From a virus (Duplodnaviria > Caudoviricetes), in IMG/VR virus record IMGVR_UViG_3300032731_000305, positions 1 to 24,057 of that record: a stretch of 24,057 nt of DNA; one strand, 5' to 3'. The translations under genes and the position numbers were made by a program. This document shows, one piece after another, positions 1 through 24,057 of the stretch. The notes beneath the pieces were generated by a model that saw only the letters and a program-made list of their open reading frames with translations, ran no database searches and was not told where the DNA came from. Position 1 is the stretch's first letter; the number at the start of each line of letters is the position of its first letter.

Positions 1-1586
1 AAGCTGAATCCACCAGTCGTTGAAACATTAATTACCTTCATTTGAGGAATGAGGTTATCTGAACCACCAGAATAATTGCCTTCTATATGTAAGAGAGAAG
101 TTGGACTCTCCGTCCCAATGCCGACAGCATCAGCAGAATCATCAAGATAAATATATCCACTAGTTGTAGCTGTACTTCCTATTCTAACATCATTACTATC
201 CTTAATAACTAAAGCAGAATTTCCATCATTAACTACTGCTCCATTAGTAACAAAAGCAAGTGTTCCACTTGAAGGTGCTTGAACATAATTATATCCTGCT
301 CTTCTAAAAAGTAAGTGAGATTCAGCAGAACTTGTTCCAACTCTCGCTGTTCCATTAACATCCAACTTCGCCCCTGGCGCCGTCGTCCCGATGCCGACCT
401 TATCTCCAGAAGTATCTACATAAAGGACATTGGTATCCACAGCCAAGTTACCAGCTAAATTGAGGCCGCCGGTAGAAGCCATAAAGTCTGTTCCGGCATT
501 ACCGATATTGGTGATGATGCTGTTTTGCATATCCAGGTTGCCGCCGAAGTTTAGGCTTCCGTTGGTAACGGTTACGCCGCCGATGTATGTGTCGCCTTCG
601 ACGTAGAGCTTGTATGAGCCGGGGTCGGTAGTGCCGATACCCACATTGCCAGTTGTATCAATATATATCAGATTTTCTGTCCCGTTAGCACCTAATCCTA
701 GCCCTCTACCAGACTTTCCCAAAATACTAAACCTTGTTGGAGAGGCACCCCATGTTATCTGTCCTTGAGCACCATTCCCAAAAGTCATAGTATCTCCAAA
801 ATCAGACGTTCCATCAACTTCTAATTTATAGTTTGGCGCCGTCGTCCCGATGCCGACGTTGCCGCTATCCAATATGACCATCTTAGTCTGAGGCGAACCT
901 GTATTGTCTGTAATAAAATGAAAATCTCCTTTATTAGTTGTTCCTGTATATCTATAAGCGATTCTAGCGTCTGCATTATTACTTCTAAAATCAAGATTAG
1001 CATAAGAGTTTGTAGTTGTATTCGAGTTATAAATCAAAAAACCACTTCCTGCAGCTCCACCGCCTAGACCGTTACCAGTTTCAACAGCAGCATCACTACT
1101 ACTAAATTGGAGTTGTAAGTTTTTATTTGGCGCCGTTGTCCCGATGCCGACGTTGCCGCCACTAACAATAACCATATCAACACTATTATCAGAACCCAAA
1201 GCAACAGGATACCTTTGTAAATTAATTAAATTCATTGACCTTGCCCCGCCATATCCCGCTGCAGTGCTACCAGCTAAAAAGAATCCACCTACCAAAGAAC
1301 TTGAATCATTACCAAACTCTAATACCGCATAATCTGAAGAAGTCATTTCTCTAATATTTATTCTACCGTTATAAACAGATAATTTATCAGTAGGCGCCGT
1401 CGTTCCAATACCAACACTATCAGAAGTAGTGGTTAAATATACGTCTGTGCCGTCATCTGTCCAACCAGTAGCTGATTGAGCACCAGTTCTAACAGATTGA
1501 TAAATTTTAACCTTTTGGTCTCCCTGTGCAAAACATAGAGAGGTTGTAGCAAGAAATATAACTGCATATTTGAGAAATTTTTTCAT
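1..1586 (-). CDS. Fibre/adhesin-like protein with six VGIGT(T/E)xP repeats and an N-terminal signal peptide; partial, continues past the left edge
   Basis: Not in the ORF track because it has no stop in the window. I translated it by hand from ATG 1586: open for 528 codons, MKKFLKYAVIFLATTSLCFAQGDQK...SVGIGTTAP...GNVGIGTTAP...GNVGIGTTAP...GNVGIGTTDP...KVGIGTTAP...AVGIGTESP. It is Gly/Ser/Thr-rich, as beta-structured fibres are. Confidence 0.85.
   Translation of the reverse strand, partial: MKKFLKYAVIFLATTSLCFAQGDQKVKIYQSVRTGAQSATGWTDDGTDVYLTTTSDSVGIGTTAPTDKLSVYNGRINIREMTSSDYAVLEFGNDSSSLVGGFFLAGSTAAGYGGARSMNLINLQRYPVALGSDNSVDMVIVSGGNVGIGTTAPNKNLQLQFSSSDAAVETGNGLGGGAAGSGFLIYNSNTTTNSYANLDFRSNNADARIAYRYTGTTNKGDFHFITDNTGSPQTKMVILDSGNVGIGTTAPNYKLEVDGTSDFGDTMTFGNGAQGQITWGASPTRFSILGKSGRGLGLGANGTENLIYIDTTGNVGIGTTDPGSYKLYVEGDTYIGGVTVTNGSLNFGGNLDMQNSIITNIGNAGTDFMASTGGLNLAGNLAVDTNVLYVDTSGDKVGIGTTAPGAKLDVNGTARVGTSSAESHLLFRRAGYNYVQAPSSGTLAFVTNGAVVNDGNSALVIKDSNDVRIGSTATTSGYIYLDDSADAVGIGTESPTSLLHIEGNYSGGSDNLIPQMKVINVSTTGGFS
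375..398. repeat. Fibre module-boundary repeat copy (tggcgccgtcgtcccgatgccgac)
   Basis: 24/24 identical to 834-857; encodes VGIGTTAP on the minus strand. Confidence 0.9.
832..865. repeat. Fibre module-boundary repeat copy containing the 29-bp quasi-palindrome 835-863
   Basis: 33/34 identical to 1126-1159; encodes GNVGIGTTAP. Confidence 0.9.
1126..1159. repeat. Fibre module-boundary repeat copy
   Basis: 33/34 identical to 832-865. Weaker copies lie at 111-125, 621-650 and 1392-1415. Confidence 0.9.
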
Positions 1587-1587
1587 A

Positions 1588-1926
1588 CTATTTACCTTCT
1601 TGAACTATGGCGACAATTGAACCTGCCGCAGTAATACCCCAGATGTCGACATTTGAACTCCATTCACCATAGTATGTATCGTAGGGCTGTAGGGGTGTTC
1701 CTATGGTCGCACCAGTAGCAGTTACTGTTGAATCCCCTATATATAAGACAGTAGTGGCATCACTATTTGTAATCAACACATATTCCCTACCAGCCAACGG
1801 GGCAGTTGGTAATTTATCTCTGGTGGTATCAACGGTTACACTGGTGGTCTTAATTGAATACTTTAATCCAATAGCACTACCAACAACCAAAAAGAATATT
1901 AATAATCCACACAATATTTTTTTCAT
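1588..1926 (-). CDS. Small beta-rich virion-type protein with a predicted signal peptide
   Basis: MKK + hydrophobic ILCGLLIFFLVV + GSAIG, then a Thr/Gly-rich domain (VLITNSD..VLYIGDSTVT..GTPLQP..IWGI); lies in the structural operon with a TAATG overlap. Confidence 0.7.
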   Translation of the reverse strand: MKKILCGLLIFFLVVGSAIGLKYSIKTTSVTVDTTRDKLPTAPLAGREYVLITNSDATTVLYIGDSTVTATGATIGTPLQPYDTYYGEWSSNVDIWGITAAGSIVAIVQEGK

Positions 1927-12661: not shown

Positions 12662-12823
12662 AACTTAAAAAATATATTTATTAAGTATTTTATCTTTCTT
12701 ACTTTAGGGTGGCGACTTGAGCCTTTTCCCTCACAAAATCAATGTCCACCATTTCTAAATGTCCACTAAACAGTAGACATTTACCCTTCCTCACCTTGGG
12801 GGGGGGTTGGAAAAATAAGTACC

Positions 12824-12848
12824 TAAGTGTTTGTACAACATATACTTA
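12824..12848. promoter_or_regulatory. 25-bp dyad TAAGTGTTTGTACAACATATACTTA
   Basis: TAAGT..ACTTA outer arms and TGT..ACA inner arms; related to 4070-4094. Confidence 0.45.
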
Positions 12849-12966
12849 CTAACTAAATGAGTGTATTGGACAAACTTAACTATATGACTGGGTTGGATAT
12901 ATAATATATAAACCCACCCGAATTTACAATCCAACAGGGTGCCCTATGCCACCCTATACCCTTGTA

Positions 12967-12994
12967 TGAGCCTATAATATTTATTATGTTGAAT
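12967..12994 (+). other. dif: dif-like XerC/XerD recombination site
   Basis: TGAGCCTATAA-TATTTA-TTATGTTGAAT has the 11-6-11 layout. The right arm matches the E. coli XerD arm TTATGTTAAAT at 10/11; the left arm ends CCTATAA as in Firmicute-type dif. Confidence 0.75.
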
Positions 12995-13397
12995 TATCGT
13001 TCGGGACTCGTATGTGTATGAGTAGTATGTGGTTAGGGTGTGCTTACTCTTCAGGTAATATATGTATTGTTCTTAACTTGTACTTATCTACATTTATCTA
13101 TTGTCTTGTATTATATATAGTATTTAAGACATTTATCGGACATAACGGACATTCTTTCTTTTCTTTCTTCGCCTAATGGTATACTGATATTGAATGGTAT
13201 ATTGATTGGTTTAGTTATAGCTAAACTAGATGACTTATACCCTGAATGTAACAATGTAATAGGTAATCATTATATTATACCCTTTTTCTTTTCTTTTTTC
13301 GCTTTTTATGAATTGTTATACCTTAAAGGGTATATTCGGTTTAAAAGACATTTGTTCGGTTTATAGAACATTTACGTGTTTTAATTGTATCAGATTT

Positions 13398-13435
13398 TGA
13401 AGCGATTAAGATACCTAATCGCTTCAGTATCTTAA
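13398..13435. promoter_or_regulatory. Perfect 11-bp hairpin with an overlapping alternative 9-bp stem
   Basis: tgaagcgatta (13398-13408) pairs with taatcgcttca (13416-13426); ttaagatac (13406-13414) pairs with gtatcttaa (13427-13435). Confidence 0.5.
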
Positions 13436-13570
13436 AGGAGTTTGTAGACTGTTACCTATATATATATCTACTCCCTTTCTTTCTTTTCTTCAGCTTACCT
13501 TGTATCAGTATTTAGGAAAGCTAGTATTTTTTTTCATTTTTTTCCTTCAACCTCAAACAAAGATAAAAAT

Positions 13571-14304: not shown

Positions 14305-14334
14305 GTTAACCCAATATAAACAAAGGGGGAAAGA

Positions 14335-14613
14335 ATGAAACTGAAAGAACGGATTGAGGGGATAATTAGAGAGAATACTAAATATGCTCTTATTTCTGGA
14401 GAGTGTCTTGGTGTTGATGAATCCCAAGCCACCACCGACATACTCAAGGCGTTTGGGGAGAGTTTGTCGAAGAAGAAAGACCCATATCCATTTCCAAACA
14501 AAGAATCTTTAATAAACTATAAAAATAATTATTATCAGTCTAGGTATGATGAAGGCTACAACCAAGCCATAGATGATATTAATGAGGAGATGTTTGAAAA
14601 GGAGCAACTATGA
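14335..14613 (+). CDS. Small phage protein, MxLKERIE paralogue family
   Basis: Shares LKERIE and QATTDILKAF with 16970-17218; GYNQA C-terminal motif. Confidence 0.75.
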   Translation: MKLKERIEGIIRENTKYALISGECLGVDESQATTDILKAFGESLSKKKDPYPFPNKESLINYKNNYYQSRYDEGYNQAIDDINEEMFEKEQL

Positions 14614-16973: not shown

Positions 16974-17218
16974 TCTATCTCCTCTATAATTTCTTGTAGG
17001 ACATCATTCTTATAGGCATTAACATCTATATTTTCATATTCAACATTACAATCAATTAACTTCTTCTCTTCTACGTCCTCCCTAAATGCCTTGAGTATGT
17101 CGGTGGTAGCTTGGTCTACTGTATAATCTTCTAGATAATCATAATTTGACTCAGCTTCAACCATAATAGATTCTCTTAACTTTTGTGCTATCTCCTCAAT
17201 CCGTTCTTTTAGATTCAT
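16970..17218 (-). CDS. Small phage protein, MxLKERIE paralogue family
   Basis: Start reassigned to ATG 17218 (ATGA overlap, AAAGGGG RBS); MNLKERIEEIA...DQATTDILKAF. Confidence 0.75.
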   Translation of the reverse strand: MNLKERIEEIAQKLRESIMVEAESNYDYLEDYTVDQATTDILKAFREDVEEKKLIDCNVEYENIDVNAYKNDVLQEIIEEIE

Positions 17219-17904
17219 CTTTTCCCCTTTCTGTGTTGGGCTATGGCGTGGGAACATTTATTTACACATTGTTTTATTGTGTTTTTTAAAACTAACTGAG
17301 TAATACCATGTTCGCTTAAGCTATATTCAAATATAGAAGCACAAGCCTGTGTAATCGGTATCCTAATTTCTTTTGCCATCTTCCCTTCATCCACCTCAAT
17401 TTTAGATTTCTTAACCCATTCTTCACCATTAATGAATAGCTCTGTAATATTGTTATTCAAGGTTTTGTAGGCAAGATGTTTACAAGGTAAAACTCTGGTA
17501 TCTGATTTTTTGGTGCAGTCTTTCTCAAACTTATCCAACTCATCACATTTATCAGCCAGTATTGCATTGTTAATTCTTTGTTGCTCTATTAGGATTTCTT
17601 TCTTGATGTAGCCAGCAGAGATTTGTTTGGCAAGTTCTTTAGCATATTTAGTATTCTTCCCTGCTTGTCTTGCTGATTGATTCTCCAATACAAAAGTTCC
17701 TATTAACTCCTCCAACCCTTTATCCTCTGTAGGTTTGATGTAGCCCTCTTCTTCTATCGCCTTGAGAATATCAGTGATTAGTTCTGGTATTTTTTGCTTA
17801 CATATTACTTGCCTATGAGATTCATTGGGTTCATTGTCGTGTGCAAAGGTAACTGTGTGTAAATAATTCCAAGCTATCTCCTCAATCCGTTCTTTTAGGG
17901 TCAT
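17215..17904 (-). CDS. Multi-module protein, MxLKERIE paralogue family
   Basis: MTLKERIEEIA...ITDILKAI, followed by further modules ending GYIK/GYIK/WVKK. Confidence 0.7.
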   Translation of the reverse strand: MTLKERIEEIAWNYLHTVTFAHDNEPNESHRQVICKQKIPELITDILKAIEEEGYIKPTEDKGLEELIGTFVLENQSARQAGKNTKYAKELAKQISAGYIKKEILIEQQRINNAILADKCDELDKFEKDCTKKSDTRVLPCKHLAYKTLNNNITELFINGEEWVKKSKIEVDEGKMAKEIRIPITQACASIFEYSLSEHGITQLVLKNTIKQCVNKCSHAIAQHRKGKR

Positions 17905-18077
17905 CTTGGGTCTCCTTTAAATAATTTATTGATTGCTACCGCAATATCATACATTTTATCTATAGCTAACCTACAACAACCACAAATAATACAGGGCGAC
18001 AATAAAGAAGAAGAACCCAATCCCATTTCACCTGTTTTTATTTTTATATAACGACAACCTTCACAAGTTTTCTTCAT
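17901..18077 (-). CDS. Small Cys-rich protein
   Basis: Start reassigned to ATG 18077 with a GGAGG RBS; CEGC...CIICGCC. Confidence 0.6.
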   Translation of the reverse strand: MKKTCEGCRYIKIKTGEMGLGSSSLLSPCIICGCCRLAIDKMYDIAVAINKLFKGDPR

Positions 18078-18099: not shown

Positions 18100-18208
18100 T
18101 GGTGGAGATGTCGTTTGTTGTTCCAGCCGTTCAACAAATCTTAAGATTATAGTCCTTTCCGCCTATGCACTTTGAATACGTCTGGCGAATACACTCGGCG
18201 ACATCCCC
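18100..18208 (-). ncRNA. Putative 109-nt tRNA-like RNA with an alanine-type acceptor stem and encoded CCA
   Basis: 5' GGGGATGTCG pairs with 3' CGACATCTCC-ACCA (10 bp, G3:U wobble, A discriminator); internal stems TTCGCC/GGCGGA and TTTGTTG/CAACAAA; fills the only intergenic gap in the local gene run. Confidence 0.6.
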
Positions 18209-18214
18209 TGATTA

Positions 18215-18664
18215 TCAATTTGACTCCTTGATGTTCTTCTTGGATAGGTTGTGGCATTGGTTGAATTTATAATTATAAACTTTATTATATTCTTCTTCGC
18301 TTAAAGATTTGTTACAAGTATAACAAAATTCATCTTGAATATAGTGGGTTTGATGTTCTCCACAATCTTTCTTCTCCACCAATTTACTTATAGCCCAGTC
18401 TTTGATTTGTTGGATAGCTTGGTCAAGTGATAATTGTTCAATAGTTTTACATTGTTTATATATTAATTCTTCTAATATATCATCTAATCTCAACTCTTTC
18501 TCGGGTTTCATCTTACTCCCTTCTTCCTCATCTTCGTTCAATTCTTTAAGTGCAGATTGTATTTGTTCTTTGACTATTTGAAGAAGTGGTAATCCAATTC
18601 TTTTAATATTATGACAATTTATCTCTGCATTTTCTAAATATTCTATTGCTTTTATTATGTTCAT
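18215..18664 (-). CDS. In-frame fusion: 51-aa helical ORF plus MKPEKELR-family protein (internal start 18511)
   Basis: ATG 18664 (ATGA overlap, GGAGG RBS) reads without a stop into MKPEKELR at 18511, which has its own GGGAG RBS; the insert has C..H....C..C. Confidence 0.65.
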   Translation of the reverse strand: MNIIKAIEYLENAEINCHNIKRIGLPLLQIVKEQIQSALKELNEDEEEGSKMKPEKELRLDDILEELIYKQCKTIEQLSLDQAIQQIKDWAISKLVEKKDCGEHQTHYIQDEFCYTCNKSLSEEEYNKVYNYKFNQCHNLSKKNIKESN

Positions 18665-18942
18665 CTCTCCTCCTTGATGTTCTTGCTGGATAGATAGTGG
18701 CATTGTCTATGACCATATTTTATAAAATCATTATCTCTTTTATTCCAATCAGCTGGCAAACTAGAAACATCTATAAAATTACCCTTCTTCTCCAACTTAC
18801 TCACAGCCCAGTCTTTGATTTCTGTAATAAGTTGGTTTAATTCTCTTTTATAATGATTATGATTTTTAGTATCTTTATAAGTCCAATCAACAAGACGACC
18901 TCTTGTTTCTATTATCTCTCTCAACTCTTTCTCGGGTTTCAT
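18661..18942 (-). CDS. Small phage protein, MKPEKELR paralogue
   Basis: Shares MKPEKELR, IKDWA.SKL and QCH.LS.KNIKE with 18215-18511. Confidence 0.75.
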   Translation of the reverse strand: MKPEKELREIIETRGRLVDWTYKDTKNHNHYKRELNQLITEIKDWAVSKLEKKGNFIDVSSLPADWNKRDNDFIKYGHRQCHYLSSKNIKEER

Positions 18943-19154
18943 CTTACTCCTTTCAAATGCTCAACACACTCCAAAGCGCACTTAATAGTATCACAAGTAT
19001 CTAATATAACTATTGGAATACTAGCTATATAATGGAAGTAGTCATATTCCTTTGATAACTTCCTTAACATCTTCTTATCCCCTATTGCTAATATATCATA
19101 GTCATTATACTTTGTAGGATGTATTACATAGAATATTCTAGGCTTCTTCATCAT
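18939..19154 (-). CDS. Hypothetical protein
   Basis: 71-aa ORF overlapping both neighbours in the operon. Confidence 0.6.
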   Translation of the reverse strand: MMKKPRIFYVIHPTKYNDYDILAIGDKKMLRKLSKEYDYFHYIASIPIVILDTCDTIKCALECVEHLKGVR

Positions 19155-23925: not shown

Positions 23926-24057
23926 ATCTTTACTCTATTTTTCTTTTGACGAGCAATTTTCCAAAAAGCTGATTGCTCAATCTTCTCATACTCAGCCAAA
24001 GCTGATTGCCTAATCTTCTCATACTCAGCCAAAGCTGATTGCTCAATCTTCTCATAC
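23916..24057 (-). CDS. 3' end of an 11-aa-repeat helical protein (partial)
   Basis: Hand translation YEKIEQSALAE-YEKIRQSALAE-YEKIEQSAFWKIARQKKNRVKIWK-stop. Confidence 0.7.
   Translation of the reverse strand, partial: YEKIEQSALAEYEKIRQSALAEYEKIEQSAFWKIARQKKNRVKIWK
23965..24057. repeat. 33-bp tandem repeat (at least 2.8 copies)
   Basis: aaagctgattgctcaatcttctcatactcagcc at 23965, 23998 and 24031 (truncated by the window edge). Confidence 0.9.

Follow-up and report, generated by a model that had tools for sequence, protein, structure and literature searches.

Can a bacteriophage encode an RNA that bears the alanine-accepting end of a tRNA on a body that is not that of a tRNA? This question is raised by 109 nt on the minus strand (18100..18208) of a 24,057-nt viral sequence, referred to here as the window, which is a tailed-phage fragment encoding a portal, a terminase, a major head protein, NinG, an exonuclease, methyltransferases, and a glycosyltransferase. 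A first-pass annotation made from the letters alone had described a non-cloverleaf RNA with a tRNA-Ala/tmRNA-type acceptor at this site and had offered several functions for it. The ends, the 10-bp terminal helix with G1-C, G2-C, and G3·U, and the terminal ACCA are all present as it had placed them, at 18208..18100 of the minus strand; RNA positions (n) are given below as 18209 minus the window coordinate. The element occupies a 137-nt gap within a run of minus-strand phage genes in which 7 of the 16 junctions overlap and just one gap is larger. It is preceded by an open reading frame (ORF) of 149 amino acids without a credible family (18215..18664, minus strand), the stop codon of which lies 6 nt before G1, and followed by a cysteine-rich ORF of 58 amino acids, also without a family (17901..18077, minus strand). 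A Shine-Dalgarno-like GGAGGAG is located at 18086-18080, 13 nt past the CCA of the element. The G+C content of the element is 47%, compared to 37% for the window as a whole.

The terminal helix, P1, is formed by nt 1-10 (18199..18208, minus strand) and nt 96-105 (18104..18113, minus strand), the latter strand holding the U of G3·U. It is followed by a discriminator A and an encoded CCA (nt 106-109; 18100..18103, minus strand) and then by a second CCA. In composition, P1 is a 7-bp alanine-type acceptor with three extra pairs (U-A, C-G, and G-C), and its pair probabilities were 0.86 to 1.0 both with and without flanks. The two internal arms described previously were also found, namely, a 6-bp arm (P2, nt 20-25/46-51; hairpin at 18158..18189, minus strand) and a 7-bp hairpin with an 11-nt loop (P4, nt 71-77/89-95; 18114..18138, minus strand). 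The fold z-score of the element was -2.25, with 6 of 200 shuffles as good, and that of the opposite strand was -0.82. According to 500 Markov simulations, the expected number of helices of at least 10 bp that carry G3·U and ACCA is 0.002 in a window of such composition; a rarity of this order could still be due to chance over a scan of 250,000 windows, and a homologue was therefore needed as proof. Contigs of four DNA runs had no listed variant within the element, and four other runs had nothing placed on the homologue described below; neither result carries evidential weight. The prediction that standard scanners would miss the element proved correct: ARAGORN detected no tRNA gene in it, Rfam returned no match at an E value of ≤1, and the sole match to a 191-nt stretch at an E value of ≤10 was unrelated and located in the flank. 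The covariance models for ribozymes and riboswitches of Rfam 15 matched neither this element nor the homologue described below.

A metagenome collection was scanned once using a pattern with both ends fixed (G1-G4, G7-G10, their partners, and ACCA). Four of the resulting 100 loci (L198, L230, L270, and L273) carry one 97-nt homologue (L270:764-860). Its interior aligned to that of the window element with a score of 77, as opposed to 22 for the next best of the other 96 loci and 13.9 ± 6.4 (maximum, 39; n = 5,000) for the shuffle control. The four contigs are near-identical, and the element and its near flanks are identical in all of them; they were therefore counted as one lineage, so that the number of distinct sequences is two. 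The homologue starts 8 nt past a stop codon and ends 4 nt ahead of an AAGGAG motif. Its upstream neighbors are a gene for a Sak4-like AAA ATPase and then a 179-aa gene in the SSB position that has no family, and its downstream neighbors are genes for an ERCC4 nuclease and a pentapeptide-repeat protein. The gene context differs between the two copies, with unrelated downstream genes, and a blastn search outside the element showed that the homologue contigs share just two weak patches with the window, both in the pentapeptide gene. In all four contigs, the Shine-Dalgarno site of the ERCC4 nuclease gene (L270, about 865-900, plus strand) precedes an ATC, and ATG is absent; this ATC is possibly a rare start codon. 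The fold z-score of the homologue was -2.77, and that of its opposite strand was +0.28. Taken together, the G·U pairs and the z-scores of the two copies (-2.25 and -2.77 versus -0.82 and +0.28) favor this strand of the element, as RNA.

The presence of G3·U and ACCA in the homologue has to be read with the pattern in mind. The first-pass annotation had expected both to be kept in homologues; formally they are, but by construction, since the search pattern, which included the discriminator A and CCA, itself demanded them. The second CCA is present in the window and missing in the homologue, and it is hence outside the conserved element; a CCACCA degradation tag was rejected as an interpretation for the same reason. 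Among the core positions left free by the pattern, 51 of 69 (74%) are identical. By calculation, about 20 fixed end positions drifting at this rate would all match the pattern in about 1 of 400 cases, and this low chance implies either that the ends are constrained or that many undetected homologues exist.

The differences between the two copies are informative on the fold. With the variable loop excluded, they comprise 17 substitutions and one indel, and all 17 substitutions fit one pairing model as eight compensatory pairs and one wobble, which is the covariation that had been proposed as a check. Helices P1 (1-10/96-105), P2 (20-25/46-51), and P4 (71-76/90-95) had been predicted from the window sequence by itself, prior to the discovery of the homologue. 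Eleven substitutions fall within these helices and amount to five compensatory pairs and one wobble: pair 5/101 of P1 is compensatory and pair 6/100 is the wobble (the other eight P1 pairs were fixed by the pattern), pair 25/46 of P2 is compensatory, and so are three of the six shared pairs of P4. When 11 substitutions were placed at random, all 22 previously predicted pairs survived in 0.0002 of the trials. The full model retains 32 of 32 pairs in both sequences, a level reached by 1 of 500 shuffles; since it was fitted to the same two sequences, its three extra pairs are to be taken as hypothetical. The two copies agree at each of the 32 core positions not involved in covarying pairs, and the P4 loop is conserved; the P2 loop is variable, with 20 nt in the window and 9 nt in the homologue. 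Compensation in helices, in another gene context, argues for a conserved structured RNA and against a decayed tRNA. Together with the ARAGORN and Rfam results, the two-sequence comparison thus bears out the earlier description of a non-cloverleaf element with an acceptor of the tRNA-Ala/tmRNA type that is neither a decayed canonical tRNA nor a member of a known Rfam family, and we consider it nearly certain that its fold has been selected.

The six substitutions left over pair perfectly as 11/82, 53/65, and 66/79; these pairs were chosen post hoc, and the probability of such an outcome by chance is 0.7 to 1.5%. Together with two adjoining invariant pairs, pair 11/82 predicts a pseudoknot of nt 11-13 with the P4 loop. 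The segment of nt 11-16 (18193..18198, minus strand) would accordingly have two sets of partners, nt 80-82 in this pseudoknot and nt 56-58 in stem 1 of another one. The second pseudoknot is predicted around pair 53/65, where a 3-bp stem (53-55/63-65, within nt 53-65; 18144..18156, minus strand) has a loop that would supply nt 56-58 for pairing with nt 14-16, in a layout that we take to be that of an H-type pseudoknot, with an A-rich linker. Pairs 14-16/56-58 were predicted by the single-sequence fold and are invariant, and nt 54-64 are identical in the two copies. A bulged anticodon-like hairpin that had been considered here was dropped in favor of the unbulged 53-55/63-65 stem. Each of the two pseudoknots is thus suggested by one post hoc compensatory pair in a comparison of two sequences, and the lone pair 66/79 is no more than a hint, which may be spatially incompatible with both knots together.

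In searches of viral contigs for further copies, the pattern with exact ends matched one locus, which belongs to the same phage and is 100% identical over 320 nt. The pattern with loose ends matched 64 loci and gave no homologue besides the same phage (3 of the 64 were outside the length range of the alignment step and were covered by nhmmer alone), the interior pattern matched at least 120 loci from 5 of 64 parts, with no homologue among the matches listed, and three core patterns matched 5, 1, and 118 loci and detected the same phage alone. GTDB genomes yielded 0 and 17 loci, all of them chance matches, end-free patterns recovered no homologue in viral contigs or GTDB, and blastn searches of INPHARED and PLSDB returned nothing significant. 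A model of the element matched 1 of 11 terminase-related records, namely, a sister contig that is 57% complete and has no match to RF00005, and a search with the upstream 149-aa protein recovered the sister contig alone. The element is missing from both of the two near-complete terminase relatives, and its distribution is therefore patchy, like that of an accessory gene. It was undescribed in the literature searched, which left out most subscription journals and supplementary motif tables.

Several other elements were observed in these searches. One complete terminase relative (L442:1501-1570, plus strand) has, just ahead of a gene start, a tRNA-like element with D- and T-arms, a shrunken anticodon arm, and a non-alanine acceptor, which scores 34.5 bits with RF00005 and is missed by ARAGORN. 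Another relative (L443, about 1497-1590, minus strand) has a long terminal helix with a canonical T-arm and no CCA, ending right before a gene start. Four further loci (L004, L013, L024, and L043, around 601-717) carry related elements with a terminal helix of 11 to 12 bp leading to ACCA and an extra flanking inverted repeat; Rfam gave no match to this family. The window itself contains repeated gene-start and gene-end modules shared by small paralogous ORFs on both strands (14323-14460, 17078-17230, 17873-17907, 18224-18259, 18488-18523, 18670-18705, and 18919-18954), which are likely recombination joints. Upstream from the packaging genes lies a stretch of about 900 nt that has no long ORF (12662-13570), with several short inverted repeats visible by eye, possibly an origin, a genome end, or a packaging site, and the window has three copies of a 33-nt tandem repeat at its end (23965-24057).

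We then compared the element with known RNA classes. The alanine acceptor set G3·U70, A73, and CCA is present, in the homologue by construction of the pattern, and G3·U70, G1-C72, G2-C71, A73, and CCA on a stable helix are the features of an AlaRS minihelix substrate. Most of the rest of a tRNA or tmRNA was not found. A motif check confirmed that the element has no GUUCRA T-loop, and neither sequence has a 5-bp T-stem with a UUCRA loop at the expected place. The 3' hairpin that had been assigned to the position of the T-arm is real but is not a T-arm, as the helix preceding it has 10 bp and a pseudoknot is predicted for its loop. Instead of an acceptor-T branch of 12 to 13 bp ending in a T-loop, there are the 10-bp P1 and the 6- to 7-bp P4 with a loop of 11 to 13 nt. 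The best candidate for an anticodon arm (5-bp stem, 7-nt loop, and U33) is a 3-bp stem with a 7-nt loop that lacks U33. RF00023 matched neither copy at an E value of ≤10, and the ARAGORN tmRNA model gave no match on the window, whereas three TLD-only positive controls scored 42 to 48 bits with RF00023. These controls (L005:601-681, L041:601-712, and L056:601-698, all minus strand) are viral TLD-only tmRNA-like genes of 81 to 112 nt that possess a canonical T-arm and CCA and are missed by ARAGORN. By eye, 7 of 9 letters of nt 17-25 are like the tmRNA D-loop consensus; alignment of the interior to DS6A, L005, L041, and L056 was at shuffle level in 8 of 8 comparisons. An acceptor of the plant virus type, built from a pseudoknot at a genome end, is likewise absent, the acceptor being a nested helix within the operon of a DNA phage. 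As judged from its sequence, the element falls outside the tmRNA, tRNA, and allo-tRNA families.

Other identities were considered and rejected. For a C4-type antisense RNA on a tRNA-like scaffold, the loops should be complementary to a phage mRNA; the 24-kb window had no such matches of at least 11 nt and three of 10 nt, versus 5.4 expected. At the conserved TATAAT, the promoter scan lists no site, and the G·U pairs indicate RNA. A protein-coding remnant is contradicted by the lack of an open frame common to both copies through the element. For an attachment site, no tyrosine integrase was detected in any of the three records searched, and compensation in the 5' strand would be needless.

The reading that we favor, with a probability of roughly 0.4, is that the RNA is excised, alanylated by the host AlaRS, and then serves as a nondecoding decoy for host factors that grip the acceptor end. 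It would act in the manner of an alanine minihelix or of a tmRNA without a message while standing outside those tmRNA and tRNA families. That its end is a functional alanine acceptor seems to us likely. The element is in operon sense, 6 to 8 nt past a stop codon and 4 to 13 nt ahead of a ribosome-binding site, with its CCA encoded, and the two-sequence comparison indicates that compensatory changes have preserved helices P1, P2, and P4, with two pseudoknots predicted. RNase P and 3' trimming would free it from the operon transcript, as for phage tRNAs. RNase P is reported to measure from the elbow and to pair with the 3' end (PMC4919913); the element has the 3' end feature but no elbow, so cleavage is putative. 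G3·U, G1-C, G2-C, and A73 would then make it an AlaRS substrate, in agreement with identity rules that name G3·U70 as the chief determinant for alanine and with the use of minihelices as substrates, as described in PMC9976931. P1 pairs 8-10 may mimic the T-stem surface read by EF-Tu: according to PMC3239215, pairs 49-65, 50-64, and 51-63 govern the affinity for EF-Tu, with U-A, C-G, and G-C as a tight-binding set, and P1 pairs 8-10 (U-A, C-G, and G-C) are the same as the three pairs that open the T-stem in L005 and L056, although they are pattern-fixed in the homologue. On the predicted model, the helix between the CCA end and the P4 loop would have 16 to 17 bp, versus the 12 bp usual for RNase P and EF-Tu. 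Finally, the element might sequester defenses or sensors that target the acceptor stem and the CCA tail, and the knotted body might provide stability or hold a specific partner. A target of this kind is exemplified by Cas12a3, which is described as cutting CCA tails and accepting truncated acceptor-stem substrates (PMC12851939). Without an anticodon arm or elbow, the element cannot decode, and the role as a decoy for anticodon nucleases that had been suggested initially is weakened by the lack of a canonical anticodon arm. A plain decoy leaves the invariance of all 32 noncovarying core positions unexplained.

Placement before a ribosome-binding site in both phages, plus the elements of the relatives, fits a cis-acting role equally well, and such a role in the mRNA, as a tRNA-like cutting signal or a translation switch, is the main rival, though unlikely on balance. 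RNase P or another tRNA-processing nuclease might cut the polycistronic message at the element, or the 3' strand of the element might pair alternately within P1 and with the ribosome-binding site downstream. The position of the element is tight in both phages, with a stop codon on one side and a Shine-Dalgarno site on the other; in the window, its 3' end can form a -10.8-kcal/mol hairpin over the downstream Shine-Dalgarno site and start codon; both near-complete terminase relatives carry other nonstandard tRNA-like elements just before gene starts; and the gene downstream of the homologue is the one that has ATC and no ATG after its Shine-Dalgarno site. On the other hand, P1 dominates the predicted ensemble with flanks (0.86 to 0.99), the downstream genes of the two phages are unrelated, the CUCC/GGAG complementarity comes automatically with any alanine acceptor, and a cutting signal would not need G3·U. 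It appears improbable that the element is a highly remodeled tmRNA without a message that, in the manner of the DS6A TLD-only RNA, inhibits trans-translation in the host through competition for SmpB, AlaRS, or EF-Tu. TLD-like RNA is reported to inhibit tmRNA (PMC4131195 and PMC11915505, citing Mao 2009), the acceptor and the last 14 nt are tmRNA-type and close to those of L005, L041, and L056, and, by eye, short stretches at nt 17-25 and 54-57 are similar to the D-loop and GGAC consensus of tmRNA. However, the absence of a T-loop, the lack of an RF00023 match in either copy compared with the scores of the three TLD-only RNAs, and the shuffle-level interior speak against it, and the tmRNA competitor named in the first-pass annotation is weakened accordingly, given also the missing elbow and an interior unlike that of TLD-only tmRNAs.

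The invariant loops would be best accounted for by a catalytic or ligand-binding double-pseudoknot core that would use, transfer, or sense the amino acid borne by its own 3' terminus. A compact double pseudoknot is a typical feature of small ribozymes, and here the single-stranded core is invariant (32 of 32 positions) and two pseudoknots are predicted within about 85 nt. Nevertheless, we hold this to be quite improbable, since each pseudoknot depends on one post hoc pair, with the stated probability that the six leftover substitutions pair by chance, and no Rfam ribozyme or riboswitch matched. A broader version, improbable as well, is that of a natural aminoacylated RNA whose body is not derived from tRNA, in which a ribozyme- or aptamer-like double-pseudoknot core is fused to an alanine acceptor helix and armed by the host AlaRS, after which the core would transfer, sense, or present the amino acid to a specific partner. 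Donation of alanine to a dedicated phage nonribosomal transferase, for DNA or protein modification, was also among the roles first suggested and is very improbable. A tRNA-dependent DNA-modifying phage enzyme is described in PMC13219725, and the window encodes two methyltransferases and a glycosyltransferase; yet no partner enzyme of an aminoacyl-transferase or GNAT family occurs among the window proteins scanned (a partial genome with many ORFs without a family), and the neighborhoods of the two copies have no modification gene in common. We regard a chance helix, a decayed tRNA or tmRNA, or an integration-site remnant as barely credible. Of the metagenome loci, 96 of 100 are unrelated, 23 of them with stems of at least 10 bp, and the sequence 3' of the element is similar to a gene-end module that recurs in the phage (repeat D12), but the fully compensated homologue in another gene context, the absence of a shared open frame, and the absence of a tyrosine integrase in 3 of 3 records argue against these readings.

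These data suggest that two distantly related phages share a small folded RNA with a tRNA-Ala-like tip on a predicted knotted, non-tRNA body. If the element is indeed charged, nature would have grafted AlaRS identity onto a fold other than that of tRNA. With a length of about 100 nt, the element is suited to bench studies of nondecoding aminoacyl-RNAs, be it a decoy, a processing signal, or a catalyst, and the two natural variants, with their eight compensatory pairs, represent ready-made swap experiments.

Several known systems resemble the element in part. Plant virus tRNA-like structures such as TYMV TLS-Val combine viral tRNA mimicry, pseudoknots, and an aminoacylated CCA end. That type ends an RNA genome and forms its acceptor arm from a pseudoknot, whereas the acceptor of the element is a plain helix, with the predicted knots distal, in a DNA phage. 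Alanine minihelices and microhelices that serve as AlaRS substrates share with it the continuous helix, G3·U70, A73, and CCA, but they are synthetic hairpins, as described in PMC9976931, and the element is natural and has a conserved body of 85 nt. The allo-tRNAs, with 8/4 or 9/3 branches and in some cases G3:U70, have a long acceptor of alanine identity, are in part phage-borne, and are difficult for scanners; according to PMC5389517, they keep a 12-bp branch, a T-loop, and an anticodon and can translate, while P1 and P4 of the element amount to 16 to 17 bp and there is no canonical anticodon arm. Also similar are the TLD-only (CDS-less) tmRNA of mycobacteriophage DS6A (L440) and the three TLD-only controls, which are phage-encoded, intergenic, and about 80 to 110 nt long, with a tmRNA-type terminal sequence. 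RNAs of the DS6A type have an alanine acceptor with G3·U and A73 and, as reported in PMC4131195 and PMC11915505, neither a message nor an anticodon. They retain a 7-bp acceptor and a 5-bp T-stem with a UUCRA loop, and the three tested match RF00023; the element has a continuous 10-bp helix, no T-loop, and an unrelated interior with predicted pseudoknots. Known message-less phage alanine RNAs thus retain the tRNA elbow, whereas this element retains the acceptor end alone, on an apparently knotted scaffold without an elbow that appears to be new.
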